Below are positions 40,062 to 53,531 of a stretch of DNA of 64,000 nucleotides, piece after piece. Origin of the DNA: Saccharofermentans sp. (GTDB lineage: Bacteria; Bacillota; Clostridia; Saccharofermentanales; Saccharofermentanaceae); NCBI GenBank assembly GCA_024403855.1, contig JAKSRC010000008.1:4584-68583 (forward strand). The letters are read 5' to 3'. A program made the position numbers and the translations under genes. The number at the start of each line of letters is the position of its first letter. Positions within the stretch are counted from its first letter, which is position 1. The notes under the pieces were generated by a model. That model had not been told where the DNA came from. It did not search any database and saw nothing but the letters and a program-made list of their open reading frames with translations.

Positions 40062-41204
40062 TTATCTCTTCGCCAGACTCTGCTTCTGCTCATACATAAG
40101 CTCATCTGCCTTATTCAAAAGATAATCGAACTCTTTCTTGTTGGTACAATCACCTGTTGCAATACCAATACTAAGATCAAGCACATACTGCTGGCCATCT
40201 TCTTTGTTCTTGGCATTTCTTTCAGTGATCTTTCTTCCGATAGTATTTACCAGCAAAGTAACATCGTCGTCTGATGCACCATTTGCAACAATTACAAATT
40301 CATCTCCGCCAAAACGGAAAACAACGATACCGCTTCTGGGAATATCATCAACAGCTTCCTGCAAAGCATTGGCAATATCGATCAAAGCCTTATCACCTAT
40401 AAGATGGCCATAAGTATCATTAATTGCTTTGAACTTGTTTGCATCAATTACGAAAATCGAGATGTTGCGGAACACATCTTTCTCGAAAAGCGAGTCCTTA
40501 TAAATATAGAACGAATTCTTGTTTTTAAGTCCTGTAAGGCCGTCCTGCTGCTCGTGATATGCAATGTTATTAAGGAACAGGAGCAAAATCGAGAAAAGAT
40601 AACCTATCTGAGCTACCGTAATTCCATAGAAAATCATCTGACATATAGCTGCGACTGCCATCGGAATCGGAAACAAAAGATAGCCTTTGTACATCTGTCT
40701 CTTCTGACGGCTCTTCTCTTTCCTGACAGCAATCATGTTAATAACAAACGCTGCAATCAGATAACCCCATTCAACGATCCAAGTTACGATAACGCCATTA
40801 CCTCTGTGATAAATAGCATCAGCATCTACTGAGAAGTAGAAACTCGTAAGTGGATTAAGCAGTATGCTTAAGCACAAAGCTATTGCCGGCAATCCTGTTC
40901 GAAGCACGATCAACTTAAGATTTGTAATGTATCTGAATCGAACGAGGATGTATACAAACCATGCATAAGTTCCCAAAACGAATGAAATGAAATACAGAAT
41001 ATTAAAAAACTGGACTGCAATATCCGTCGTACCTCTGAATACATATGCCATAATATCCGCCAGGCTGGCAACTATCAGAGCTGTAATCATCACAAGCATG
41101 ATCATCTGCGAAGTTTCATTACGTGATGATGTTCTTCGGCACTGTATCAGGAGTATCAAACCAAAAACTATGGCAATCAAATTAGTCTGAACGTAGTAGA
41201 GCAT
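40062..41204 (-). CDS. membrane-anchored diguanylate cyclase (GGDEF domain)
   Basis: About 7 N-terminal TM segments. The C-terminal GGDEF domain has an intact RFGGDEF active site. The start is taken at ATG 41202-41204 after GAGGGGTGGA; the track start at 41219 is TTG. Confidence 0.85.
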   Translation of the reverse strand: MLYYVQTNLIAIVFGLILLIQCRRTSSRNETSQMIMLVMITALIVASLADIMAYVFRGTTDIAVQFFNILYFISFVLGTYAWFVYILVRFRYITNLKLIVLRTGLPAIALCLSILLNPLTSFYFSVDADAIYHRGNGVIVTWIVEWGYLIAAFVINMIAVRKEKSRQKRQMYKGYLLFPIPMAVAAICQMIFYGITVAQIGYLFSILLLFLNNIAYHEQQDGLTGLKNKNSFYIYKDSLFEKDVFRNISIFVIDANKFKAINDTYGHLIGDKALIDIANALQEAVDDIPRSGIVVFRFGGDEFVIVANGASDDDVTLLVNTIGRKITERNAKNKEDGQQYVLDLSIGIATGDCTNKKEFDYLLNKADELMYEQKQSLAKR

Positions 41205-41337: not shown

Positions 41338-41366
41338 TTGCACAACGTATCTTCTCGTGATATCAT
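41338..41366 (+). promoter_or_regulatory. candidate sigma-A promoter of the nine-gene operon
   Basis: TTGCAC (41338-41343), a 17-nt spacer ending in TGa, then TATCAT (41361-41366). It lies 34 nt upstream of the first ATG. Confidence 0.55.
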
Positions 41367-41399
41367 CCGGTTAATAGATTTGATTGGAGGATTTTTTAT

Positions 41400-41852
41400 A
41401 TGGAAACTAATAAGGATACTAAGAATACAAATGAATCCGCTTGGCATCTTACTGCCTACGATTATCTCTTAACTACTGCAATAGAAAAGAGAAAGGAAAA
41501 CATTTCCGTCATTGAGCTAAGCAAGAAACTTGATTACAAGAGATCGAACATATACAGAATGGAAAGCGGTTCAATTGACTTAAAGGTATCTACCTTCCTC
41601 AATTATCTGCACGGATTCGGATATCATTTAGAGATTATGAAAGACAAATCATCTTCTCTCAATGTCACAGAAGACAACGCAACTAATGTCGATATAACTG
41701 TCGAATCTGGCGATTTATCCTATATCATCGAGACTTTTGATGTTAATAAGCAAAAGTTCGAAAAAAGGCTCAGCAAGAAAACCAGATTAATGCTTTTAAG
41801 ATTTCTTCTTAAGGAATTCGAAGACGAGCTTCAACTAGAAGAAGACAAATAA
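41400..41852 (+). CDS. XRE-type HTH protein with an acidic C-terminal extension (operon gene 1)
   Basis: A GGAGG site lies 9 nt upstream. ISVIELSKKLDYKRSNIYRMESGSIDLKVSTFLNYLHGFGYHLEI fits a Cro/C1-type HTH. The C-terminal 70 aa are unassigned. Confidence 0.7.
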   Translation: METNKDTKNTNESAWHLTAYDYLLTTAIEKRKENISVIELSKKLDYKRSNIYRMESGSIDLKVSTFLNYLHGFGYHLEIMKDKSSSLNVTEDNATNVDITVESGDLSYIIETFDVNKQKFEKRLSKKTRLMLLRFLLKEFEDELQLEEDK

Positions 41853-41867
41853 TGGAGAAAAACTAAT

Positions 41868-42578
41868 ATGACACGTTTATTTGTAACCGGTGATCTTCAC
41901 GGAGATCACGACTGGGCTAAATTAAATACAAAAAACTTCCCAGTTCAGAAGGAACTAACAAAAGATGACTATTTAGTCGTGCTTGGAGATTTAGGAGCAG
42001 TTTGGGACGGCGCAAGAGGCGACAAATACTTGCAGAACTGGCACAGTTCAAAGAATTACACTACACTCTTTGTAGGTGGCAATCACGAGAACTATGACAT
42101 TTTGGATGCAATGCCTGTAACAGAATGGCAAGGCGGAAAGGTGCACATGGTGACAGATTCACTCATCCATCTTATGAACGGACAGGTTTATAATCTGTGC
42201 GGAAAGAAAGTTTTCGTCATGGGCGGAGCGGAAACATCTGATAAGGAACGTCGCAAGGAAGGCGTCTCCTGGTGGTCACACGAACTCCCAACTTCAGAGG
42301 AGTACGACGAGGCACTCGAGAATCTCAGCCTGCACGGCAACAAGGTAGATCTCATCTTCACTCATTGTGCGCCGGAGACGACTGTAACGAATATGTTCAT
42401 GCCAAAGATGTCCGTACGCAAGCTAAATGACCTGACATCCTTCCTTGATATGATCGCGCAGACCATAAGCTTCAATGACTGGTATTTCGGTCACTACCAC
42501 GAGGAGTCTGACAAGGGCAAGTTTCACCTGCTCTATAACAGCGTAATCGAATTACCGGAGGATAACGATAATGCATAA
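41868..42578 (+). CDS. calcineurin-like metallophosphoesterase, type 1 (operon gene 2)
   Basis: All metal-ligand blocks are present: GDLHGD, VVLGDLGAVWDG, GGNHENY, IFTHCAP and GHYHEE. Confidence 0.8.
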   Translation: MTRLFVTGDLHGDHDWAKLNTKNFPVQKELTKDDYLVVLGDLGAVWDGARGDKYLQNWHSSKNYTTLFVGGNHENYDILDAMPVTEWQGGKVHMVTDSLIHLMNGQVYNLCGKKVFVMGGAETSDKERRKEGVSWWSHELPTSEEYDEALENLSLHGNKVDLIFTHCAPETTVTNMFMPKMSVRKLNDLTSFLDMIAQTISFNDWYFGHYHEESDKGKFHLLYNSVIELPEDNDNA

Positions 42579-42999
42579 TCCTATACTCAGCATTTTTGAA
42601 GCTTTGGCAGTATCAGGCTTTCCAAATAAGGAAGATCTGAGGATCGAAGTCCTCGGTTGTATCAAAAGCTTTATCTCGTATTTTGACGATGTAGTAAATG
42701 AACAGATCTATTACTCCGCTACGTCAAAGGATAAGCAGGACATCTGCATTATGAAAGCACATGATGAAAGAAGGAGAAAAGCCCACGATCTTTGCATTGC
42801 TTCATGTATCCGACTTAACAGTATCTGCGATGAGATGAACATCGATCAGATATGTGATTTCGATGTCGAGGACAGAAAACAGGTTGCTGAATTTGCCGGA
42901 CTTATCGCCTGCGACCTGTATTTTACCAATATAAAGTGCGGAGAATCTCTAACGAACTGGTTAAACAATTCTCCGTTGAAGAAAGAAGGACAACCATGA
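42571..42999 (+). CDS. hypothetical protein (142 aa, operon gene 3)
   Basis: Has a GGAGGA Shine-Dalgarno site. It overlaps gene 2 by 8 nt and gene 4 by 4 nt (ATGA). No motif recognised. Confidence 0.65.
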   Translation: MHNPILSIFEALAVSGFPNKEDLRIEVLGCIKSFISYFDDVVNEQIYYSATSKDKQDICIMKAHDERRRKAHDLCIASCIRLNSICDEMNIDQICDFDVEDRKQVAEFAGLIACDLYFTNIKCGESLTNWLNNSPLKKEGQP

Positions 43000-43583
43000 A
43001 CTACTACATTTCAGATATGCACTTCGGCCATCAGAATATCCTTAAATACGATGCTCGACCATGGAAAGACGTACATTCCATGGAATATGACATGATCGAC
43101 TGGTGGAACTTGAAAATAACCGCCAAGGATGATGTATACATTCTCGGTGATTTCTGTTTCGGCGGTTATGATGATTGGAAAAGGATTCTTTCGCAGCTTA
43201 ACGGAAGAAAGCATCTTATCATTGGCAATCACGACTTAAAACAGTTCCCGTCGGATATAATCTCGCTCCTTGCTGAGCCTCCCGTTCCATACAAGGAGAT
43301 TACGGACGGCAGTTACAGAGTACTCATGTGCCACTATCCTTTGATTTCATATAACCATGACACCAATCCAAATACATTGATGTTTTACGGGCACGTCCAC
43401 AACACCAATGAATTCGTTGCGGTAATGGAATCTGTAAAGACAATGAAAGAATGCTGCCAAGCCGTAGGCTTTGATTACCGGGGGCGTTTATATAACTGCT
43501 GGGGCGGATTCTTCGGTTGGAAGCCTGCTTCTCTTATGGAAGTCCTGACAAATAAGTATTCAAATATCAGATTAAGAAAATAA
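42996..43583 (+). CDS. calcineurin-like metallophosphoesterase, type 2 (operon gene 4)
   Basis: The start is taken at MNYYISDMHFGH. Blocks present are SDMHFGH, YILGDFCFGG, IIGNHD, LMCHYP and YGHVHN. The sequence is clearly different from gene 2. Confidence 0.8.
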   Translation: MNYYISDMHFGHQNILKYDARPWKDVHSMEYDMIDWWNLKITAKDDVYILGDFCFGGYDDWKRILSQLNGRKHLIIGNHDLKQFPSDIISLLAEPPVPYKEITDGSYRVLMCHYPLISYNHDTNPNTLMFYGHVHNTNEFVAVMESVKTMKECCQAVGFDYRGRLYNCWGGFFGWKPASLMEVLTNKYSNIRLRK

Positions 43584-43595
43584 AGGGGGCATGAT

Positions 43596-44522
43596 ATGTC
43601 TGACTCTATGCTCGAGAAAGAATACAATGTATATTCAGAAAAATACGATATTCACGGCGTCGTAAAAGACTACGGCGTGGCAATTAAGCTTATCTTCACT
43701 TATGAAGGCAAAGAAGTTGAGATGGGGCTTTCGAGAGGTATCGATACCGATTACAAAAAACTCGGGAAAGACCTTATCGAATCTTATATTGAAAAGCTCG
43801 CTTCACCAAACGGAGAACGGAAACTCCAGCTCCACTATTGGTATATCAGCCCTCACGAGATCCATGGTACAACTTATGTTATAGGACACGGCATTGTTAC
43901 AGGGCACAAAAAACTCGCAAATTCCAACTTTATCTATACTTCCGCTGTCGAAGCTGTCTTTATCGATGAAATCAACGAAGAAGCTGTACTTACTACCAGG
44001 AACAGCATTTATCACTGTCCTCTCGCATACTTAAGATTCGATAAACAGGATGAACAGCCTGAACTGTTACCTGATTATGAGAGATTAAAAGAAAAGTATA
44101 AGGATACTATCTTATACCCTTCCATTGAACCTGGTAATGTTCTTTTGGCACTTGCGGATTTCTGTAAATACTACTTTCACTCCCTGTATTATGTGCCTGC
44201 GGATGCAAAAGAAATCAAGCCTGTCAAGTTCAGCGGATATGCACATATCGGAACATTTCAAGACAGCTATCTGATTCAGGCAGAAAACGGCATTGATCTC
44301 AGATATTTCCCGCACTATCAGAATATCGAATTCTACTCGGGAGAAACCAATGGTTGTCCGTTCTATATCGAGAACATCGGAAGCTCGGTCATTTATGCGC
44401 GCACTTGGGTAGGAACGATCAAGCTTGAGCCCGGCGACCGCAAAGAAGTAAATAAAGAAAATGCCGAAGATGAACCTCCGTCTCTCGCAAACGGAGATCT
44501 TTATCCGGCAGGTATTTTTTAA
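43596..44522 (+). CDS. hypothetical protein (308 aa, operon gene 5)
   Basis: Has an AAGGGGG Shine-Dalgarno site. No catalytic or binding motif recognised. Confidence 0.65.
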   Translation: MSDSMLEKEYNVYSEKYDIHGVVKDYGVAIKLIFTYEGKEVEMGLSRGIDTDYKKLGKDLIESYIEKLASPNGERKLQLHYWYISPHEIHGTTYVIGHGIVTGHKKLANSNFIYTSAVEAVFIDEINEEAVLTTRNSIYHCPLAYLRFDKQDEQPELLPDYERLKEKYKDTILYPSIEPGNVLLALADFCKYYFHSLYYVPADAKEIKPVKFSGYAHIGTFQDSYLIQAENGIDLRYFPHYQNIEFYSGETNGCPFYIENIGSSVIYARTWVGTIKLEPGDRKEVNKENAEDEPPSLANGDLYPAGIF

Positions 44523-44782
44523 TGGAAAGATCTTATATCAACAGACGTATTTCACAGAACAAAAAGTGGACGGGCAAAGACTGCAAAAGGCACAAGCACA
44601 GCTTTACCGACCCTTGCATTGTCCGCCTGACCGGTAACGAGAACAAACACATTGGAACCTCAAGCTACACTGCGCTGAAATGTGAGAAATGTAATTCTTT
44701 TACGAATCTTAAATTTGTATCCGAACAACCGAAAGGACTGCCTGTTCTCGTTTTCGAAAGACGCATTTTGCAATCACGTTAA
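44522..44782 (+). CDS. small basic Cys/His-rich protein, putative zinc ribbon (86 aa, operon gene 6)
   Basis: Junction with gene 5 is a TAATG overlap. CKRH...C and CEKC pairs suggest a C/H4 metal site. The N-terminus is very basic. Confidence 0.55.
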   Translation: MERSYINRRISQNKKWTGKDCKRHKHSFTDPCIVRLTGNENKHIGTSSYTALKCEKCNSFTNLKFVSEQPKGLPVLVFERRILQSR

Positions 44783-44810
44783 AGGATATTAAGTTCAAGG
44801 AATATATCGA

Positions 44811-45005
44811 ATGCGAAAAATAATAGTCCGAAATAAGATAAGATGTCTTGAATGTGGTGACGTAATAGAAAGCATATCTGTTCACGATTACAGAAAATGC
44901 TCCTGTGGAAAATGTGCCGTAGATGGTGGGAATGAATATCTAAGACGCACCTTCGCTTATGAAGGCGTTTACGAGGAATTAAGTGAGTTCGATACAGGAG
45001 AATAA
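44811..45005 (+). CDS. small zinc-ribbon protein (64 aa, operon gene 7)
   Basis: The motif CLECGDVI...CSCGKCAVDGG (CxxC ... CxCGxxxxDGG) is present. An AAGGAA site lies upstream. Confidence 0.6.
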   Translation: MRKIIVRNKIRCLECGDVIESISVHDYRKCSCGKCAVDGGNEYLRRTFAYEGVYEELSEFDTGE

Positions 45006-45010
45006 ATATC

Positions 45011-46513
45011 ATGGAAGATTTCGTAAAAACAGATAACATCGAATATAAGATCTATAAAGAAGCAAAAATCGTATTGAAGAAATCAGTCTGCGAGGCTTAT
45101 CCTCTGGGACGCATACTGATCTGCCAAGATTCAGGCGAAAATCTCAATGTTATCTGCGAGGTCAAAACAGATTTTACAAGTCCGAAAGCAGAAATCGAAG
45201 ATATCAAAAAGATCCCACTCCCCTCTTCAGATGAACGTTATATCTATATTGGTGTCTTTCCAAAGGAAACCAACGAAAGTCTTGTTGATGTAGAACGTCG
45301 AGTAATCGACAGCTTGGAAACTAGAGACCTGTTAGAATACAAAAACAGAATCTTCCAAAAGGATGAACCAACAGTAAAAAAAACGTTCTATATTATTGCT
45401 AATCTCGAAAAAGACACAGAGGATATATTCTTTCGGGATTATGGAATCACAAGCTTTAGAGAAAAGCTCAGACAGGCTTGCGAAATATCCTTTGCACAAA
45501 TTACAGCCGAGCCTAGCAACACACTGAAAGAGCAGATTCGTTCTTGGGCCAACAAAGTGTCTTTCAACGAGTTTGAAAAGGAGATAGAAAAGACGATTCA
45601 GGGACAACCAGAATTAAAATCAGTTGTCTTCCATGTTTATCACTACCTTTCAAACATTGCAAAGGAACTGCCCATTGATAAGCAGAGCATAATTCTCACG
45701 GGGCCTTCCGGATGTGGCAAAACCGAAACCTACAGAGCCTTAAAAAAGTATTTTGAAAAGGAGATTCCGCCACTTGTCGTAGATCTCATCGACACGAACC
45801 AGATAACCGGCGAGGGCTACAAGGGCAAGGATACCAATCACATAGTATCGGCTCTAAAGAAAGCCAAATCAGATGGCATAGGAATCGTGTTCCTAGACGA
45901 GTTCGATAAAAGGCTCATCCCAAGCCACTCGAGCCACGGAGACGATGTAAACAGAGAGATCCAAGGCCAGCTTCTTCTTGCAATAGAGGGCTGTGATCTT
46001 GATGGCATTGACACGAGTAACACACTCTTCATCGGCATGGGCTCCTTTAACGAGGCCAGAGAAAAAAGAAGACAGGAAAAGCACATCGGCTTTGGTGTTG
46101 AAAGAACGGATGCTGCTTGTGAACACTACTCTCCAATCACCAGAGAGGAGATGATAAAGCTTGGTGCATCCTACGAGCTCATAGGACGCTTTAGTCACGT
46201 AATAAACTACGGTCCCCTCTCTCCCGAGGCACTCGACAGGATAATCGACATGAGGGCTTCCGAGGTATCCGAGTCCTATGGAGTAAGGCTTTCCATAAGC
46301 GACAGCATGAGAGCCTTCCTCCATCAGAATTCCAATACGGAATTCGGAAACAGGCTCATTGAATCTCTGATCAGAGAGGCTGCGACCAGGGCCATGATAG
46401 AGATCCTTTCCGAAGAGATCAGCGCAAAGGAAATCGTGATAACGGGCAAGGATTCATATATCATAAAGAAGGCAGTTACAGAGGAACAACAACAGCAGAG
46501 GGAGGCATTATAA
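45011..46513 (+). CDS. ClpX-like AAA+ unfoldase with a novel ~200-aa N-terminal domain and no ClpX zinc-binding domain (operon gene 8)
   Basis: Walker A is GPSGCGKTE. A pore-1-like loop GEGYKGKD matches ClpX GYVG. Walker B is IVFLDEFDK. LFIGMGSF matches ClpX ILFICGGAF. An IGF-loop-like KHIGFGVE is present. ASYELIGRFSHV matches ClpX LIPEFIGRLPV. Confidence 0.8.
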   Translation: MEDFVKTDNIEYKIYKEAKIVLKKSVCEAYPLGRILICQDSGENLNVICEVKTDFTSPKAEIEDIKKIPLPSSDERYIYIGVFPKETNESLVDVERRVIDSLETRDLLEYKNRIFQKDEPTVKKTFYIIANLEKDTEDIFFRDYGITSFREKLRQACEISFAQITAEPSNTLKEQIRSWANKVSFNEFEKEIEKTIQGQPELKSVVFHVYHYLSNIAKELPIDKQSIILTGPSGCGKTETYRALKKYFEKEIPPLVVDLIDTNQITGEGYKGKDTNHIVSALKKAKSDGIGIVFLDEFDKRLIPSHSSHGDDVNREIQGQLLLAIEGCDLDGIDTSNTLFIGMGSFNEAREKRRQEKHIGFGVERTDAACEHYSPITREEMIKLGASYELIGRFSHVINYGPLSPEALDRIIDMRASEVSESYGVRLSISDSMRAFLHQNSNTEFGNRLIESLIREAATRAMIEILSEEISAKEIVITGKDSYIIKKAVTEEQQQQREAL

Positions 46514-47032
46514 ATGTTAGGACATCCAAAATATAAAAAGGGCGATATCGTTCGCTTCAATACCATGTCATACGACGACGCGCATCACGAAATAGAGCCA
46601 CATCCCGTTAAGTCGATCGGCGAGATATACATCGTGGATGCTTATGGTACCTTCGAGCAGGATGACGAGGTTTCTTATGACATCCTGATACCCGGAGTTG
46701 TCTTGGTAAAGCACTGCGTCGAAAGCACCATAACCGAGCTGATAAGAAGCGCTGACGATCCACATGAAGATGATTACGTTAAGTTTGACAAGGATACCAA
46801 CATAATGCTCGTTGCTGCCGTCTGTCTTCTGCTCGCCTTTGATGCCAAGGAGGGTCAGCGCGATTTGAATATGGTTAGGAAAATGCTCAATCTGAACTCG
46901 ACCATGATCTCAAGGGATGGCATAAAAAGACCTGGTCTGGAATGGCTCTTCTATGACTTCAAGGATAGAAATGGAAGCATTAATCTGGTTATAGATGCTT
47001 TTAAGGCATATAAGAAAACCAAGGATTTATGA
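46514..47032 (+). CDS. hypothetical protein (172 aa, operon gene 9)
   Basis: The ATG directly abuts the gene 8 stop, and a GGAGG site lies upstream. No motif recognised. Confidence 0.6.
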   Translation: MLGHPKYKKGDIVRFNTMSYDDAHHEIEPHPVKSIGEIYIVDAYGTFEQDDEVSYDILIPGVVLVKHCVESTITELIRSADDPHEDDYVKFDKDTNIMLVAAVCLLLAFDAKEGQRDLNMVRKMLNLNSTMISRDGIKRPGLEWLFYDFKDRNGSINLVIDAFKAYKKTKDL

Positions 47033-47287
47033 GACATGTTTTCTTCCGTAAATAAAAGAAAGGAGTCTGAGACTTGTTTGCTGCAGAATCATTTCCTTGA
47101 CAACACCTTCACAAGGAACCTCATAAGAATCCTTTTATGAGAGCAGCCCGGGCACTCGAGTTTTTGTTTTGCACAAACAAAAAAGATCGGTAACCAAAAA
47201 CGAACAGTTTTTGAGTGTATACCGTCGATTAAAAAATGAAATAACCGTAGCATTCCTATAGACTTATGAGTCTAGACACCACAATAC

Positions 47288-47617
47288 TCATTCAGTGACG
47301 TTTTTCTTAAAAAGAGAAGGATAATTTGTACGCCCGTCGAAAATGTGGTACACGATTACTTTGTCTTCGGACACTTTGTATATAGAGATATATGTTCCTG
47401 CAACGACAAACCTAAACCCATCTTCCGACAGGTCGGGATCGTTTATTAGCGGGCCGGAAAACGGGTGTTTTTCTAATCGTTCCAAGGAATTCAGTATCTT
47501 GTCAGTTATCCTACGAGCAGATTTCGGGCCAACAAGTGTCAAGTGAAGCAGTGCAATGTTTTCCAAGTCTTCTTGCGCAGACTCAAGAATTTCTATACAA
47601 ACCGGGTTACTGCTCAT
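47288..47617 (-). CDS. type II toxin, RelE/ParE family
   Basis: 109 aa. It overlaps the upstream antitoxin gene by 11 nt. The C-terminal ...VIVYHIFDGRTNY is typical of ParE-like toxins. Confidence 0.75.
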   Translation of the reverse strand: MSSNPVCIEILESAQEDLENIALLHLTLVGPKSARRITDKILNSLERLEKHPFSGPLINDPDLSEDGFRFVVAGTYISIYKVSEDKVIVYHIFDGRTNYPSLFKKNVTE

Positions 47618-47870
47618 AGATATTGTTCAACCTATTCCTGGATTCGGAAAGACTAAATGTCTTACATCCGTTAATTCTACTTTGCTCAGTTGCAGCCAGT
47701 TTAGCCTTAAGTTTGTATGTCTCTTCGAGTCGCTCGAAAGCCTCTATGCTCATGACAACGAGATCGCCTTCGCCATTTTTTGTTATGTAAATTGGTTCAT
47801 CATTTGTGTGAGCCAAATTAGATATTTCTGTGTAATCATTTCTCAATGTCGTAGAAGATTTAATCAGCAT
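47607..47870 (-). CDS. type II antitoxin, Phd/YefM family
   Basis: 87 aa. The sequence TTLRNDYTEISNLAHTNDEPIYITKNGEGDLVVMSIEAFERLEE is the Phd/YefM N-terminal fold signature. Confidence 0.8.
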   Translation of the reverse strand: MLIKSSTTLRNDYTEISNLAHTNDEPIYITKNGEGDLVVMSIEAFERLEETYKLKAKLAATEQSRINGCKTFSLSESRNRLNNIYEQ

Positions 47871-47944: not shown

Positions 47945-47974
47945 AAAAAAGGGTTCAGAAAAACTCTGAACCCC
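47945..47974 (-). terminator. native tRNA-Arg intrinsic terminator, now separated from the tRNA by insertions
   Basis: The minus-strand stem GGGTTCAG / CTGAACCC is 8 bp and perfect, followed by TTTTTT. It lies directly 3' of the 45-nt tRNA fragment DR1. Confidence 0.75.
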
Positions 47975-47984
47975 TTATAAATAC

Positions 47985-48029
47985 TGGTGATCGTGAGCGG
48001 ATTCGAACCGCTGGCCTACCGCTTAGGAG
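47985..48029 (-). repeat. DR1: 45-nt copy of the tRNA-Arg(CCT) 3' part (anticodon loop to CCA), distal att site
   Basis: TGGTGATCGTGAGCGGATTCGAACCGCTGGCCTACCGCTTAGGAG is identical to 49233-49277 and to 53455-53499. Confidence 0.9.
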
Positions 48030-48125: not shown

Positions 48126-48713
48126 TCATCCTATATATCTTTGTGAATAAGTTCCCGTAATCAATGCGATAATGTCTTCTTCATCCCAATACTCATTAGG
48201 AAAAATCGTAATGCTGTCCTTGTGTTTACGAATAATTCGGTATGGGGTATCCGTATTATCATACACATGAAGAATATCACATAAAGACATTAACTCTTTT
48301 ATGTTGGCAAGCGACTTGTAAAAACGTGTTTTGACTTTTTCTCTATCAACATCATGACCACCTTGCATGACACGTGACTCGACTCTTGCAACATTCAATT
48401 CAGGATCGGCAGTCAATACAAATACGCACTTAATAAAATACCCTTCAGCCTTTGATTTCCGAAGAATATCCATCTTGTATTTCGAAGATAAGACAGTCTC
48501 AAATGTAAGATCAGACTTTGCCTCTATAGAATCATATCGCTTTTTGTCAACAAACTTGGCAGCTTCCTCATTTTCCATTCCTGTTGAAGACACGACATCA
48601 TCCGCATTAGTGTATTCGCCAGCAATTTCGAAAAACTTGGTTATCGTACTCTTACCAGATCCATTAGGCCCGGCAAAACACAAGAGCATAGGTTTTCTTA
48701 AAGCGTTATCCAA
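48126..48713 (-). CDS. zeta-toxin/COG4185-like P-loop kinase/ATPase
   Basis: Walker A FAGPNGSGKST lies near the N-terminus. The size is about 195 aa. The start overlaps the upstream small gene (TTG at 48713; an alternative ATG lies 8 codons in). Confidence 0.65.
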   Translation of the reverse strand: MDNALRKPMLLCFAGPNGSGKSTITKFFEIAGEYTNADDVVSSTGMENEEAAKFVDKKRYDSIEAKSDLTFETVLSSKYKMDILRKSKAEGYFIKCVFVLTADPELNVARVESRVMQGGHDVDREKVKTRFYKSLANIKELMSLCDILHVYDNTDTPYRIIRKHKDSITIFPNEYWDEEDIIALITGTYSQRYIG

Positions 48714-48978
48714 TATTTACCTGCTTTCCATCCGAATCAACCAATACAGGTGCCTTTTTGCTCTTGTCATATACGGCCAGCGGCTTTTTACAAACTTTAG
48801 CTTTTCTCTTTGCGTTGCTGACAGCCTGCCTAGCTCTTTTATCCATATCTGCATCATCGGGAGAAAGAATTCCTGACTCAATCAACTTAGCGCTAGTAAC
48901 ACGCTTCTTGGCAACTTTGACTTCCATATTATCTATCTTCACAACATGCTTAATTACTTTTTTCTCTTCATCACTCAT
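48706..48978 (-). CDS. small basic protein, putative cognate antitoxin/partner (90 aa)
   Basis: Has an ATG start with a GAAAGGAAG site upstream. It overlaps the P-loop gene. No motif recognised. Confidence 0.5.
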   Translation of the reverse strand: MSDEEKKVIKHVVKIDNMEVKVAKKRVTSAKLIESGILSPDDADMDKRARQAVSNAKRKAKVCKKPLAVYDKSKKAPVLVDSDGKQVNIG

Positions 48979-49150: not shown

Positions 49151-49223
49151 AAAACCACCTGTGATACGAGTTCCGCAGGCGCTTTAGCGCCGAGGACCTG
49201 TTTGAAGTAGCACAGGTGGTTTT
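49151..49223. terminator. long nested stem-loop flanking DR2
   Basis: AAAACCACCTGTG (49151-49163) pairs with CACAGGTGGTTTT (49211-49223). The inner hairpin is GGCGCT-TT-AGCGCC. T-runs lie on both sides. It occupies the same position relative to DR2 as the tRNA terminators do relative to DR1 and DR3. Confidence 0.55.
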
Positions 49224-49232
49224 CTATGACCT

Positions 49233-49277
49233 TGGTGATCGTGAGCGGATTCGAACCGCTGGCCTACCGCTTAGGAG
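49233..49277 (-). repeat. DR2: 45-nt copy of the tRNA-Arg(CCT) 3' part
   Basis: Identical to DR1 and to the 3' 45 nt of the intact tRNA. Confidence 0.9.
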
Positions 49278-49621: not shown

Positions 49622-52600
49622 TCATGTTCTTTCGGCAATAATCGTCGATACTCTATCATTAATTATCGGCAAAACAGCATCAAGACTCTTTTGATCCACA
49701 AAATATGGCGGAACTTCCTCTCTTATTACGATCAATACCGCAGGATCGTTATTATCAATTACAGATGCGGATAGAAGAACGTTCTTATAAGAAGTTATGA
49801 CAGTATCATCCAAAGGCTGAATAAAAGTATTATTCTTGTTAAACTTCTCAAGTGCTATTATAGCAGAAGATTCGAATGCAGATATGCTCATTGGATTGCT
49901 ATCTTGTGTTGCAACCACATTCTGAATCTCATCACTCATACAAATCCTGATGAATTCCCAAGCGCCATCGGCAACTACTGAAGGTGCACTAGCTGAAATA
50001 CCGATAGAAGTTTGTACTGAAATTACCGGTCCGCGACCATCAGTTGAAGGATATCCCAAAAGTGTCATGTTTTTTGCGTTAGACCCATTTTTATTTAAGA
50101 AATAGCGAAAATCTGGATACCAGGTATCCTCTGCATTGGTGCACATACTAAAAGATTTATCATTGACATTATTCTTTACATAGTCACATAGAGCACGAAA
50201 AGATTCGTTATCAAAATTGACTTTCTTTCCGTCAATACACGTGTCACTCATATATGAATACAGAGTGCAGATGGCTTCGAGTTGAGACTGATTCATCGGA
50301 TCAGCACCATTGCATATCTCATTAACAAATTTTGTATATTCATCAAAGGTAAAACCTAATTGGCCGTTACTGACATTAGATTTGTCTGTTTCTATACCTG
50401 ATACCGTAAAACTCACCGGCATATAGAGAAGTTTGTCATCAATCTTAGATGCACTTATTACATTAGAGAAATAGTCTGCTTCATTGATTCCATTTTTGCC
50501 TTTGATATATCTACTCAGATCCAGAAGATATTCTTCTGACTGGATCAGTCTGAAATCATCTGCATACAAGATTATGTCCGGGCCATTACCGGACAATATA
50601 TCGGTAACAAGTTGATTGCCGAGTGCTGATACCCCATTATAATATATGTCCATGATCTCATCATGATTTTTAGCATCACTGTAATCAATGTAATCAGCAA
50701 TACTGAGCTTATTTTCTAACAAGACAAAATAATCCCCGTTTGTCTCATTGAACACTCTGATTGCTTCACAGATCGAATACTCTAAATCAGTCCTTCCGAC
50801 TGTAGCTGCCGAAAGCATTGTCTTGCCGGCATTAGGATTCTTTTCAGTTTTCTCAAGAACGATAATCGTTGGAACGTATATTAGTTCTCTATCAAACTCA
50901 GTAAGCAAATCACTATCTTTTATCATTCCTGCAAAAACATACTTGTTGTCTTTAACGGAAAGAAGATCCATTCCGATCAGGGTTTTCCTGTTAACATTAC
51001 AGCTGTTATAAGAGAAAACTTCTTCCAATTCCTTTGATGCAAAATTTATGACTTTTACGCCGTATTGATCTTTAAAATATGTCTTTCCATCTAATGATGA
51101 CAGACTAGTTCCATACTTGATATTCTTGAGCCAAGAGTATTCTTCATCTTTGTTTTTTATTTCTCCGGTCTCAAGATTCAAGGAGATCAGACTCACATTA
51201 TTTGAAGAACAAACAAGAAGGATTTCTGTTTCTGAAACAGGTATATAATTTTTGAAATAGTTGATAGATGAAAAATGAGGATCGCCTATTAGATCAACAA
51301 ATTTGCTATTGCCCTCTTTACTGATCGCAAAAGATAAAGTGCCCGTCTTACGGTACCAGGATACTGTATAATCTCCAATAGTCCAGGAATCCTCATAATT
51401 AATAGGGTTTTCTTCTTGAGAATCATATGGAATGTTTTCCAACTCTTCTAATTCACCGACGGTTCCCGTTTCCGGATCTATCTTAACCAAATAACAATTA
51501 GTCTCATTACTGTTAACAGGACGCACAGTATCGTGCAGCCTGAGATCAATACCATCATCATTAATTGTAATGTTGTCAATTTCTCTATTGAAACGAACTT
51601 TGCTAATATCGATAGATTTTATTAACTCTCCGGTAAAAACATAATAATCAAGATTAATAAAATGCGAATCCGTTTTTGATTGTAAAGATCCTTCCGTTTC
51701 TATAAGGACACCATCTTTATAAGCTCCAAGAATATTTCTTGTGAAATAGTCCAACTTCAAATCTTTGTATTTATCGTCAATTTTAGTTATTTGAGAACTA
51801 AACCAAGTATCACTCGATTTGATCTTTCTAGTATCGGATGTATTTGCAAAAGAACAGCTTGTAAGTAACAATATAGTAGCCAGGCTAAATGCGAGAGCCT
51901 TTCGGCTGTTATCCGCCGGTTTCTTAATACTGATGATTCTCTTCTTCATCAATTGATAACCGCTTTTCATTCCGGTTGATAATGCAAAGAAACCTGTTAT
52001 ATTCGACTGCTGTTGTAGCATTTCTAATAGCGTTCTTGCATATTCTTTAGAAGAATCCGTTCCATAAGCTTTCATGACTGCTTCATCACACGCTAATTCA
52101 CAATCTCTGCCGGAAAGAATAAATGCTACCCAAATGACCGGATTGTACCAATTAAGGAAAAGAACCAAATATCTGATAAGCACCCACAAATGATCACCGT
52201 GTTTATAGTGACATGCTTCGTGACAAATTATGTATTCGCTTATATTTTCAGTACCATCATCAATATAGATTTTGTTAAACATAAGGAACGGTGTTTCCTT
52301 ATGTTTAATACCGTAGATTTTTAGTCCACTCAAAGGATCCTTGCCAAGATATTTTCTTTTTCGTTTGCAATACAATATAAAACCGATATTGTACGCTATC
52401 AGAACAACTACAAGAATAGCAGAAACGAAGTAACAGCAGTTCTGTAGTATAGATTCTATCTTTTTTGATTCATTTGCTTTTACCTTTGATACCGCCACAT
52501 AATTAACCGGTATCTGCGCTTGTTCACGGATTGTCTCATTTACAGGTATATTATTTCCAGGTATATTTGTCTGATTAACAGAAGCGTCGTTCTCTATTTG

Positions 52601-52858
52601 TAAATCTTCAACTATGACCGCCGGAGAATCATTATCTGTTACATCATATGTTGTAGTTTCCGTTTTTGAAGTAAAAATATTGTTCCAAATATCTGCTACC
52701 GGAACATCTATCTTTACAAATGGCATTAAAATCATATAAAGCGGAATGACAATCCAGAAAGCATATTGATGCTTATGGAGAATCTTTCCGTCAGATAAAG
52801 CCCTAATAACGATTATTACGAGTGTTAATATAGAAATTCCAATAAGATAGCGAAACAT
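49622..52858 (-). CDS. BlaR1/MecR1-family (peptidase M56) signal transducer with a very large non-PBP extracellular region
   Basis: 1078 aa. N-terminal TM segments and the zinc motif CHEACHYKHGDH (HExxH) are present. After a further TM segment comes about 740 aa of extracellular sequence. The last ~350 aa look like an ABC solute-binding protein (SGNGPDIILYADDF, GAWEFIRICMSDEIQ). Confidence 0.75.
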   Translation of the reverse strand: MFRYLIGISILTLVIIVIRALSDGKILHKHQYAFWIVIPLYMILMPFVKIDVPVADIWNNIFTSKTETTTYDVTDNDSPAVIVEDLQIENDASVNQTNIPGNNIPVNETIREQAQIPVNYVAVSKVKANESKKIESILQNCCYFVSAILVVVLIAYNIGFILYCKRKRKYLGKDPLSGLKIYGIKHKETPFLMFNKIYIDDGTENISEYIICHEACHYKHGDHLWVLIRYLVLFLNWYNPVIWVAFILSGRDCELACDEAVMKAYGTDSSKEYARTLLEMLQQQSNITGFFALSTGMKSGYQLMKKRIISIKKPADNSRKALAFSLATILLLTSCSFANTSDTRKIKSSDTWFSSQITKIDDKYKDLKLDYFTRNILGAYKDGVLIETEGSLQSKTDSHFINLDYYVFTGELIKSIDISKVRFNREIDNITINDDGIDLRLHDTVRPVNSNETNCYLVKIDPETGTVGELEELENIPYDSQEENPINYEDSWTIGDYTVSWYRKTGTLSFAISKEGNSKFVDLIGDPHFSSINYFKNYIPVSETEILLVCSSNNVSLISLNLETGEIKNKDEEYSWLKNIKYGTSLSSLDGKTYFKDQYGVKVINFASKELEEVFSYNSCNVNRKTLIGMDLLSVKDNKYVFAGMIKDSDLLTEFDRELIYVPTIIVLEKTEKNPNAGKTMLSAATVGRTDLEYSICEAIRVFNETNGDYFVLLENKLSIADYIDYSDAKNHDEIMDIYYNGVSALGNQLVTDILSGNGPDIILYADDFRLIQSEEYLLDLSRYIKGKNGINEADYFSNVISASKIDDKLLYMPVSFTVSGIETDKSNVSNGQLGFTFDEYTKFVNEICNGADPMNQSQLEAICTLYSYMSDTCIDGKKVNFDNESFRALCDYVKNNVNDKSFSMCTNAEDTWYPDFRYFLNKNGSNAKNMTLLGYPSTDGRGPVISVQTSIGISASAPSVVADGAWEFIRICMSDEIQNVVATQDSNPMSISAFESSAIIALEKFNKNNTFIQPLDDTVITSYKNVLLSASVIDNNDPAVLIVIREEVPPYFVDQKSLDAVLPIINDRVSTIIAERT

Positions 52859-52859
52859 A

Positions 52860-53216
52860 TCAATCCTCTTCGATTATTCTACGAAGTTCCTCTAACTGCT
52901 CTTTAGAAAGTTTGTCTGAACACTTTAGATTGGAGATCAGCAATCCAACATTACCGCCATATACTTTGTCCAGAAATGATGTTGTCTCCTCTAGTTCAGC
53001 TTCCGTTCTATCTACTGCAGCACGGAACCATTTGGTTCTCCCCTCCTGATCATAGGAAACCAGTCCTTTTTCAACCATACGATTAAGCAAAGTTATAATT
53101 GTCTGCTTAGACCATCCGGTCTTTGCATCTAAGGCTCTTGTAAGTTCCATTAAAGTCATGGATTTATTATCCCAAAGACAATTGATGATCTTCCATTCTG
53201 AATCAGTTAAACGCAT
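52860..53216 (-). CDS. blaI: BlaI/MecI/CopY-family transcriptional repressor
   Basis: 118 aa. LTDSEWKIINCLWDN..MTLMELTRAL....GWSKQTIITLLNRMVEKGLV is the winged helix of the penicillinase-repressor family. Only 1 nt separates it from the blaR1-like start. Confidence 0.85.
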   Translation of the reverse strand: MRLTDSEWKIINCLWDNKSMTLMELTRALDAKTGWSKQTIITLLNRMVEKGLVSYDQEGRTKWFRAAVDRTEAELEETTSFLDKVYGGNVGLLISNLKCSDKLSKEQLEELRRIIEED

Positions 53217-53286: not shown

Positions 53287-53420
53287 AGACTGAACAGTTC
53301 ACGTGTGATGATGTTCTCCTGCAAATGTTAACGAACTGGAAATGGCTTGAAATAAAACGCAAGAAGTTCAGATGTTTGGCTTGTTCCGCCACCTTCCGCC
53401 ACTTTCAAGGCAATAACAAA

Positions 53421-53454
53421 GGGGCCAGAAAAACCCTGAACCCCTTGCAAATAC
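53421..53454 (-). terminator. terminator-like hairpin 3' of the intact tRNA-Arg (diverged copy of 47945-47984)
   Basis: The minus-strand sequence GGGGTTCAGGGTTTTTCTGGCCCC is followed by TTTGTTATT. Its stem is weaker than that of the native copy. Confidence 0.5.
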
Positions 53455-53531
53455 TGGTGATCGTGAGCGGATTCGAACCGCTGGCCTACCGCTTAGGAGG
53501 CGGTCGCTCTATCCAGCTGAGCTACACAATC
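53455..53531 (-). tRNA. trnR: tRNA-Arg (anticodon CCT), CCA encoded
   Basis: The reverse complement is GATTGTGTAGCTCAGCTGGATAGAGCGACCGCCTCCTAAGCGGTAGGCCAGCGGTTCGAATCCGCTCACGATCACCA. The acceptor stem is GATTGTG/CACGATC and the anticodon stem is ACCGC/GCGGT, with loop CTCCTAA. Confidence 0.9.

Follow-up and report, generated by a model that had tools for sequence, protein, structure and literature searches.

Gene systems that act in biological conflict typically combine a conserved core with variable accessory genes (PMC9503650, section 3.8). Among the closest described examples are the ARG-centred systems, which are predicted to reverse ADP-ribose modification in such conflicts (Iyer, Burroughs, Anantharaman and Aravind, 2022; PMC9503650, section 3.8) and are described from Actinobacteria, Planctomycetes, and Proteobacteria. 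The array analyzed here lies in a 64,000-nucleotide stretch of a Saccharofermentans sp. contig (JAKSRC010000008.1, positions 4,584 to 68,583), which in its full length is called the window. It consists of nine tightly packed open reading frames (ORFs), g1 to g9, all on the plus strand at window positions 41400-47032. In order, they encode a probable XRE-type helix-turn-helix (HTH) regulator, a metallophosphoesterase (MPE1), a 142-amino-acid (aa) protein, a second metallophosphoesterase (MPE2), a beta-rich protein, a Cys/His-rich basic protein, a DUF7695 zinc ribbon, a ClpX-like AAA+ unfoldase, and a 172-aa protein. In its logic the array resembles the ARG-centred systems, which combine a repressor-type transcription factor, an adduct-removing enzyme, phosphatases (calcineurin-like ones are among theirs), and a chaperone as a core with add-ons; PARG, ADP_ribosyl_GH, and Macro occur in its sister arrays. 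However, genes for ARG, PARG, and Macro are all missing from the window array. Its regulator is XRE-type whereas theirs is Nudix-HTH or WYL-HTH, and its chaperone is a ClpX-like AAA+ protein whereas theirs is vWA, SseB, or TY-chaperone.

Binuclear metallophosphoesterases carry out RNA end-healing in Pnkp (PMC3675462, PMC2190708). RNA-repair gene sets (Pnkp-Hen1, RlaP, and "Swiss Army Knife" HAD) share this enzyme type with the array, and RlaP, HAD_SAK_2, PARG, and cREC are encoded in sister loci. Unlike these sets, the array proteins include no ligase, kinase, or Hen1, and MPE1 and MPE2 have no detectable sequence relationship to the Pnkp phosphatase. Anti-defense clusters of plasmids and conjugative elements (leading-region arrays, 10.1101/2023.02.15.528439; polyvalent-protein domains, PMC5512222) are also same-strand arrays of small, rapidly shuffled genes, and one g5 relative lies between TraG/VirD4 and YodL/DUF3846 genes. 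In contrast to these clusters, the array has no ArdA, SSB, PsiB, methyltransferase, or known anti-defense protein, and the window has no origin of transfer (oriT), relaxase, or type IV secretion system (T4SS) gene. Likeness to Dodola (DolA/DolB) consists of a match of g8 to the DolB model (6.7e-11), but this match covers only part of the AAA+ region and the nine proteins include no DolA-like partner. ClpX and g8 share a single AAA+ ring module with Walker A and B, pore-1, and GRF motifs, and a conserved [IF]-G-F tripeptide aligns with the IGF loop of ClpX; g8 differs from ClpX in that it has no C4 zinc-binding domain and no RKH loop, scores far below the equivalog cut-offs, and has its gene in variable arrays instead of next to clpP and tig. 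MPE1 and MPE2 match families without established function, namely phage phrog_1649 and phrog_547, respectively, and for MPE2 also Aquifex aq_1665 (1xm7). A metallophosphoesterase with a counter-defense role is known from a mycobacteriophage (Gp48; PMC12287305), and its sequence was not compared with MPE1 or MPE2.

Searches against PADLOC-DB v2 (2023) assigned no system to the nine proteins, and seven of them had no match at all. The remaining matches are weak and at the level of the P-loop for g8, whose AAA+ region is partly matched by DolB, PDC-M37B (4.9e-9), PtuA (5.7e-6), and IetA; g2 has a weak PDC-S10 match. NCBIfam gave no equivalog among the nine proteins, and no description of the gene combination was found in the literature or in PADLOC (2023). 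Literature searches on ClpX-like proteins in conjugative elements or defense, and on DUF7695, returned nothing relevant. An earlier sequence-only reading, which had proposed an undescribed conflict or defense system, was thus right that no named defense system matches, and profile searching has not placed the genes in a described one. Its gene content (XRE HTH, two metallophosphoesterases, zinc ribbon, and ClpX-like AAA+) was also borne out by domain and profile matches.

The layout claimed for the block was largely reproduced. All nine plus-strand ORFs are present, and the eight junctions from g1 to g9 are exactly as claimed (+15, -8, -4, +12, -1, +28, +5, and 0 nt). Each ORF had been credited with its own Shine-Dalgarno site; clear sites precede six genes (g1, g2, g3, g5, g8, and g9) and weaker ones (AAGGA) precede g4 and g7, but none is evident in the stretch upstream of g6 (GGCAGG). 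The promoter-like site on the plus strand at 41338..41366 (TTGCAC-17 nt-TATCAT, with TG just 5' of the -10 element) is present as described, was also returned by the promoter scan, and ends 33 nt 5' of g1. It is consistent with a promoter, yet it is not counted as evidence of one because the scan of the region gave 13 promoter-like sites against 17 expected in shuffled sequences. No operator-like repeats were found at this site, the terminator scan gave no plus-strand terminator-like sites inside the block, and the Rfam scan matched only two tRNAs. Given one strand, short or overlapping junctions, a single upstream promoter-like site, and no internal terminator, the nine-gene array headed by the XRE-type gene is probably co-transcribed. 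Ratios of nonsynonymous to synonymous substitution (dN/dS) of 0.10-0.30 against the nearest relatives show purifying selection on g2, g4, g5, g8, and g9, which indicates that these five are real genes.

Comparison with relatives shows that the block is not conserved as a unit. The full nine-gene set was found only on an identical 18-kb contig (L001; loci retrieved for comparison are cited by L numbers), and the exact AAA+ protein is on record only there and in one NCBI assembly. Contig SVIZ01000001.1 of SIG422, a related metagenome-assembled genome (MAG), carries two related arrays 13 kb apart. Cluster A contains HTH, MPE1, a second MPE1, MPE2, g5, AAA+, and g9, and cluster B contains HTH, a 71-aa ORF, Fic, MPE1, g3, MPE2, g5, and a 261-aa DUF7695 protein. 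In DNA identity, window 41864-44572 (92%) and 44760-44965 (89%) go with cluster B, window 45014-47098 (86%) goes with cluster A, and a recombination joint lies between g7 and g8. Nucleotide identity to cluster B also jumps from 77% in g2 to 99% in g3 and 97% in g4 and g5. Because of the A/B split and the jump at g2/g3 within the B-like part, the block is read as a product of recombination that joined four or more segments of unlike ancestry. Gene g6 is absent from both clusters; the segment 44573-44759, which covers most of g6, has no counterpart in cluster B, although the sequence on both sides of it is 89-92% identical there.

Cassette loss is directly evidenced in a close relative of SIG422, where the A-type array of L198 retains an AAA+ gene of only 65 codons. 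This remnant (L198 10941-11135; L197 3719-3913) ends the A-type array, and the sequence beyond it is unrelated. The phosphoesterase-g5 block occurs without AAA+ in L198, L113, L119, and L134, and AAA+ is also found without g5. The mosaic joints and the AAA+ loss in L198 show that the AAA+ part can separate from the phosphoesterase-g5 part.

Subsets of the nine genes recur in other lineages. Comparison loci were anchored on AAA+ (80 genome and 28 viral loci) or on g5 (80 metagenome loci), and anchors were collapsed at 90% identity. Lineages of g5 were counted only with at least 5 kb of flank, and partners were counted at a distance of up to 8 kb. Genes in the fetched loci were called with a crude longest-ORF picker, many loci are short metagenome contigs, and the association counts are raw, without a formal genomic background. 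Among 23 g5 lineages, partners were a phosphoesterase in 16, AAA+ in 6, PARG in 5, ClpP in 4, a TraG-like gene in 3, and DUF7695 in 2; g3 and g9 were each found in 1 and g6 in 0. Among 12 lineages of AAA+ proteins that share the N-terminal domain of g8, a phosphoesterase was found in 8, a g1-like HTH gene in 5, g5 in 3, and Fic in 3. A human-gut lineage (about 20 contigs) has HTH_3, DUF7695, MPE2, PARG, Metallophos, AAA+, a 79-aa ORF, and g5 in one same-strand array, in which MPE2, AAA+ (415 aa), and g5 are 37, 38, and 53% identical to their window counterparts. Gene order varies among versions of the array, the pairings recur in lineages that are 37-55% identical at the protein level, and beyond the SIG422 group g3 and g9 turn up only as partial matches. 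The g5-phosphoesterase and AAA+-phosphoesterase linkages are thus recurrent, and a core of genes is found together elsewhere. The possibility raised in the sequence-only reading, that the genes show no co-occurrence outside this genome, applies to the full set and fails for the subsets. The array belongs to a fluid, recurrent neighborhood of an XRE regulator, metallophosphoesterases, g5, DUF7695, and ClpX-like AAA+ or ClpP.

The product of g8 (45011..46513, plus strand) is a 500-aa ClpX-like AAA+ unfoldase by profile and Foldseek comparison and carries a private N-terminal domain of 175 aa. In PDB, ClpX chains match the profile of this family (E 7e-25), and the AlphaFold2 (AF2) model (predicted local distance difference test, pLDDT, 84) has only ClpX among its top 50 Foldseek matches (template-modeling score, TM, about 0.7 on target). 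Sequence identity to ClpX is 24-27%, and scores against the NCBIfam ClpX models are 80.3 bits for NF003745 (cut-off 359) and 59.4 bits for TIGR00382 (cut-off 370.75). In a 23-member alignment of the family, Walker A (GPSGxGKTE or GPSGCGKTE), Walker B (FLDEFDK), pore-1 (G-[YF]-x-G), and GRF (aligned to ClpX FIGR) are invariant or nearly so; g8 itself has Walker A and B, the pore-1 aromatic loop, and the sensor-II arginine of ClpX. The segment HIGFGVER aligns with GIGFGATV of ClpX, which is the IGF loop used by ClpX for docking on ClpP. Residue 359 is I or F in 21 of the 23 members, G360 is present in all 23, and F361 in 21. Residues 358-365 are the sole low-confidence stretch within the AAA+ module of the model, as would be expected of a flexible docking loop. 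The segment of the ClpX RKH loop is a gap in the family alignment. For the wider AAA+ family, IGF motifs were counted by regular expression, but this count also caught the FIGMGSF motif and was discarded as unreliable.

Residues 1-175 of g8 form an alpha/beta domain unrelated to the C4 zinc-binding domain of ClpX. An exhaustive search with this domain found 8 matches among 1.8 billion representatives, mostly from its own subfamily or short ORFs, and gave no functional clue; a word-indexed search returned nothing and missed even the parent protein, probably a limit of the tool. Against plasmids, tblastn with the AAA+ protein found only ordinary ClpX at about 27% identity. The closest IMG/VR relatives are 42% identical and lie on two contigs, and in large IMG/VR phage contigs a ClpP-like gene stands directly 5' of the AAA+ relative. 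The IGF-like loop, the private N-terminal domain, and the recurrent ClpP genes support, but do not prove, a role of g8 as a ClpP-dependent protease component with its own choice of substrates.

Other AAA+ relatives have different surroundings. Lachnospiraceae MAG contigs L072-L084 carry two or three tandem AAA+ paralogues, 27-31% identical to g8 and with conserved partner genes at their flanks (about 500, 480, 675, 485, and 1050 aa), which looks like a separate multi-AAA+ locus. In L003 (8752-11461) and L006 (8570-11497), an AAA+ gene with the same N-terminal domain is preceded by genes for a small membrane protein and a lipoprotein of about 310 aa with a TACDT lipobox, unrelated to g5, which suggests a different, envelope-linked partner set. 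A gene pair (about 310 and 445 aa, no Pfam match) adjoins AAA+ arrays in L005 (15134-17390) and L003 (6285-8586) at 30-34% identity. In P0057, P0074, and L205 (5344-7599), the AAA+ polypeptide contains a T4SS-DNA_transf (TraG/VirD4-like) region, with a weak Pfam match in L205. In L113 and L123, a ClpP gene stands next to a TraG-like gene. These arrangements hint that Clp components are linked to coupling-protein-like ATPases.

The 308-aa product of g5 (43596..44522, plus strand) belongs to a family of 375 homologues of about 312 aa without a Pfam domain. All homologues with a source name are from Lachnospiraceae or Butyrivibrio, so the family has so far been seen only in gut and rumen Clostridia. 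Its AF2 model (pLDDT 82.5) has two mostly beta domains. Fold searches against PDB and viral models gave no significant full-length match, and a sequence search of PDB gave none. The N-terminal domain (residues about 75-145; window 43818-44030) has weak structural matches to phage proteins of about 100 aa (probability 0.99, TM about 0.5 on target, E about 1e-2), and a match to phrog_9449 at 3e-4. A region of L204 (14909-15226) is recorded together with this domain. One of the structural matches is gp237 of Salmonella phage PVP-SE1, whose gene has an RNA ligase 2 gene two genes 3' of it and a Tk.4-like phosphatase nearby; gp237 was rejected as a g5 relative for lack of sequence-level similarity. 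Proteins of about 310 aa encoded 5' of AAA+ in L003, L004, and L006 were also considered as distant g5 homologues and rejected: by BLAST those of L003 and L004 are unrelated to g5, and that of L006, which was not compared directly, clusters apart.

The two phosphoesterases belong to different families and have all their metal-ligand motifs in sequence. MPE1 (g2, 41868..42578, plus strand, 236 aa) is a binuclear metallophosphoesterase (PF00149 6e-8; phrog_1649 4.8e-35) in which GDLHG, GD, GNHE, and GHYH are visible; its dN/dS is 0.10-0.12, and a sequence search of PDB found no match. MPE2 (g4, 42996..43583, plus strand, 195 aa, ATG start) is of the aq_1665 type (phrog_547 1e-35; PDB 1xm7 1.5e-9). 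Its family has relatives in 1394 phage records, in which many lytic phages appear to be represented, and it adjoins g5 or the AAA+ gene in many lineages.

The other plus-strand genes are smaller. The first gene of the array, g1 (41400..41852, 150 aa), encodes a probable XRE-type regulator on the basis of HTH_3 (E 3e-4, 21.2 bits against a Pfam cut-off of 23) and phrog_1373 (1.4e-7) matches, and homologous HTH genes head related arrays in L002, L005, L006, and L198. The 142-aa product of g3 (42571..42999) and the 172-aa product of g9 (46514..47032; start codon abutting the g8 stop) have no match to families, defense models, or PDB. Relatives of g3 are confined to SIG422 cluster B (98% aa identity) and a 44-aa fragment in L113. 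A g9 relative lies 3' of the AAA+ gene in SIG422 cluster A (88% aa identity), the N-terminal 76 residues of g9 recur 3' of an AAA+ gene in L023, and its dN/dS is 0.30. The zinc-ribbon protein of g7 (44811..45005, 64 aa, PF24749 3e-27) is DUF7695, which stands alone in the human-gut module and forms the N-terminus of the 261-aa protein in SIG422. The 86-aa Cys/His-rich basic ORF g6 (44522..44782) has no match to any family or defense model. Its status as a gene is uncertain because no homologue was found in about 200 related loci, and it is probably a local insertion.

Neighbors of the sister arrays include mobile-element genes, enzymes that may remove modifications, and defense genes. By Pfam, 119 distinct neighbors include Metallophos (6), HTH_3 (5), CLP_protease (2), T4SS-DNA_transf/TraG (2), ADP_ribosyl_GH (2), Tn916-type integrase (2), and Fic (2), as well as Macro, HAD, HipA_C, and Resolvase; a PHA02142 OB-fold domain is also among them. 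L113 is a conjugative-element gene set (ClpP, TraG/VirD4, C39 peptidase, MPE2, g5, ImmA-like, YodL/DUF3846, and adhesin). L123 has ClpP, TraG-like, Metallophos, and g5, and L134 has ClpP, g5, MPE1, and MPE2. L205 has AAA+ and then HTH_3, Metallophos, cREC, and Metallophos, all part of an extended series of small genes on one strand. L074 encodes RlaP, HAD_SAK_2, PARG, PHP, MPE2, AAA+, and a separate ORF corresponding to the C-terminal half of g5, and L203 has DUF2828 with WYL. We take DUF2828 to be TROVE-like, and PF21189 presumably comes from a phage RNA-ligase-like protein. L002, with 74% DNA identity to the right flank of the window, has a type I restriction-modification (RM) system, HTH_3, a phosphoesterase, a 52%-identical AAA+ gene, and an integrase abutting the same tRNA-Arg. 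ParE and dynamin-like GTPases are encoded near AAA+ in L003, and HNH, an SLFN-like helicase, and a MazG-like protein in L202. Whole-cluster blastn against phage and plasmid collections gave no match, and the phosphoesterase families alone are widespread in phages. The sequence-only reading had allowed that homologues might lie mainly in prophages, as an early or replication module; with no IMG/VR match for g5 and no phage blastn match for the cluster, this was not found.

Our tentative reading, to which we give a little less than an even chance, is that the block is a recombinant, XRE-headed accessory array of gut and rumen Clostridia, of the integrative and conjugative element (ICE) or variable-island type, with at least two cassettes that would bring eraser enzymes and a ClpP-dependent unfoldase into conflict between genomes. 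The first cassette would comprise HTH, MPE1, g3, MPE2, and g5, pairing active-looking phosphoesterases with g5, and the second would comprise DUF7695, the ClpX-like AAA+ protein, and g9 and supply the unfoldase. Such an array would take away what an opponent has put in place. With help or direction from g5, the phosphoesterases may hydrolyze a phospho-linked product of the opponent's attack; candidate substrates are a nucleotide second messenger, a 2',3'-cyclic-phosphate RNA end, and a protein or nucleic-acid adduct. In sister arrays PARG, ADP-ribosylglycohydrolase, Macro, Fic, HAD, and cREC could handle other adducts. The ClpX-like hexamer is predicted to dock on ClpP through the IGF-like loop, the partner being the host's ClpP in this genome and an element-encoded one in some relatives, and would unfold chosen proteins and feed them to degradation. 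Specificity may be set by the private N-terminal domain, g9, and DUF7695.

A function that serves the mobile element itself, in counter-defense or establishment, is weakly favored over host defense on three grounds. Phage records, apparently with lytic and jumbo phages among them, contain the phosphoesterase families and ClpX/ClpP-like pairs, g5 arrays are found inside conjugative gene sets, and one phage metallophosphoesterase acts in counter-defense (PMC12287305; sequence not compared). The preference is weak because the same facts fit a host-protective module. A more specific version is unlikely: ClpX paralogues borne on mobile elements of gut Clostridia would dock through the IGF-like loop on host or element-encoded ClpP and, guided by their private N-terminal domains together with DUF7695 and g9-type partners, degrade host immune effectors or toxins, while a previously unrecognized g5-phosphoesterase pair destroys a phospho-linked immune signal or adduct. 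If true, this would be a new proteolysis-based strategy of counter-defense.

Several observations weigh against this accessory-array reading. Substrate, activity, and phenotype are predictions for all nine proteins, and the assignment of the IGF-like motif as a ClpP-docking loop comes from an alignment. The "eraser" theme is a reading of domain names rather than a measured enrichment over a genomic background. No g5 match was found in IMG/VR or, by tblastn, in PLSDB plasmids. Genes for an integrase, a relaxase, a T4SS, and ClpP are absent from the window; tblastn of the integrase (that of L002 included), TraG, and ClpP of sister loci against it gave no match, and mobility of the array here is suggested by its relatives only. 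The nine genes and the adjoining ParE/Phd pair lie just beyond the last copy of a tRNA-Arg end, outside the att-bounded islets described below. Finally, relatives beside type I RM, OLD/UvrD, dynamin-like GTPase, SLFN-like helicase, and HNH genes fit host defense equally well.

Host defense is an alternative that we consider unlikely. It would make the array an undescribed anti-phage or anti-plasmid system, kept off by the XRE regulator, in which infection would set the phosphoesterases and the unfoldase, acting with ClpP, to destroy a target that is foreign or the cell's own. The lack of a match to any known system would fit such a role, as would a regulator at the head of the array in several lineages and a conserved core with variable accessories, the pattern of conflict systems (PMC9503650, section 3.8). 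The neighborhoods are rich in defense and toxin-antitoxin genes (ParE/Phd and Zeta here; L002, L003, L115-L118, and L202), and the variable, conflict-rich setting claimed for the array was borne out in the window and in its relatives. However, domain, PADLOC, and NCBIfam searches gave no recognizable sensor or toxic effector, and the gene set is not kept as a unit. Phage records, apparently also those of lytic and jumbo phages, commonly contain the MPE2 family and ClpX/ClpP-like pairs, and relatives sit inside conjugative-element sets beside TraG and YodL/DUF3846. Of the conflict or defense system first proposed, the tight block, the missing named match, the conflict-rich setting, and a recurring core stand, but a single nine-gene unit does not.

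The block could also have no joint function and be a decaying, recombined remnant of mobile-element cargo, with independently acting genes crowded side by side and co-transcribed only by historical accident. Its origin from at least four segments would suit this idea, together with the unique g6 without a Shine-Dalgarno site, DUF7695 as the N-terminus of a 261-aa protein in a relative, the truncated AAA+ gene in L198, and the absence of mobility genes from the window. Purifying selection on g2, g4, g5, g8, and g9 (dN/dS 0.10-0.30), the retention of overlapping or abutting start and stop codons, and the recurrence of pairings across lineages with 37-55% protein identity argue against it and make it rather improbable.

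Repair of RNA or macromolecule damage for the benefit of the cell, with phosphoesterases healing the 2',3'-cyclic-phosphate or 3'-phosphate RNA ends left by ribotoxins (a step likened to that of lambda phosphatase and of the bacterial Pnkp phosphatase module) and the unfoldase clearing damaged proteins or toxins, is very unlikely: binuclear metallophosphoesterases do heal RNA ends in Pnkp (PMC3675462, PMC2190708), sister loci carry RlaP, HAD_SAK_2, PARG, and PHP (L074), cREC, the PHA02142 OB-fold, Macro, and DUF2828 with WYL (L203), and the g5 N-terminal domain weakly resembles the small PVP-SE1 protein encoded near the RNA ligase 2 gene, but such RNA-repair genes occur in few relatives, the window array lacks an RNA ligase, polynucleotide kinase, and methyltransferase and so has an incomplete "heal and seal" syntax, and neither MPE1 nor MPE2 has a significant PDB sequence match to Pnkp or lambda phosphatase.

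If the reading of the block as an accessory conflict array is true, it would be a first case in which a ClpX paralogue borne on a mobile element diverts the ClpP protease of the cell in inter-genomic conflict, and it would give a function to the orphan families g5 and DUF7695 and to the common phage families phrog_547 and phrog_1649. The IGF-like loop, a Walker-B trap mutant, and the metal ligands of both phosphoesterases are testable handles. If it is wrong, the case would show that tight translational coupling in a conflict-rich neighborhood does not make a "system". Here, the nine-gene "operon" dissolves into recombining cassettes on comparison with relatives.

Flanking sequences place the array beside a variable tRNA locus. 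To its left is a GGDEF gene (40062-41204, minus strand). An exact look-up of the GGDEF protein for an empty site returned no record, though L001 lists a 380-aa product there, so this is probably a limit of the tool; because no empty site was obtained, the left island boundary is undefined. No further tRNA-fragment (att) copy was found left of the cluster. To its right, the ParE/Phd toxin-antitoxin pair claimed beside the array is present outside it (47288..47870, minus strand; PF05016 and PF02604 on the identical contig L001). The zeta-like module and tRNA-Arg hotspot were also recovered, as a Zeta_toxin domain and an intact tRNA-Arg(CCT) at 53455-53531. Repeat comparison places the leftmost copy of the tRNA-Arg 3' end, an att-like repeat, at 47985..48029 (plus strand) and a second copy at 49233-49277. 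The tRNA-Arg(CCT) 3' end thus occurs three times (within window 47945-48029, 49193-49277, and 53415-53531), with an exact match across 25 nt or more. Two small stacked islets are delimited by the copies, one with the Zeta_toxin module (48126-48978) and one with a BlaR1 (Peptidase_M56)/BlaI-like pair (49622-53216).

Another variable locus was seen in human-gut contigs L115-L118, in which a 55%-identical g5 lies beside a core beta-mannosidase gene. An opposite-strand array (CI-like HTH, Metallophos, Metallophos, DUF4253, and Metallophos) is located 3 kb from g5, and the stretch beyond it varies among strains (OLD/UvrD pair or helicase/MZB). These contigs appear to mark a hot spot that differs between strains of one common gut species.

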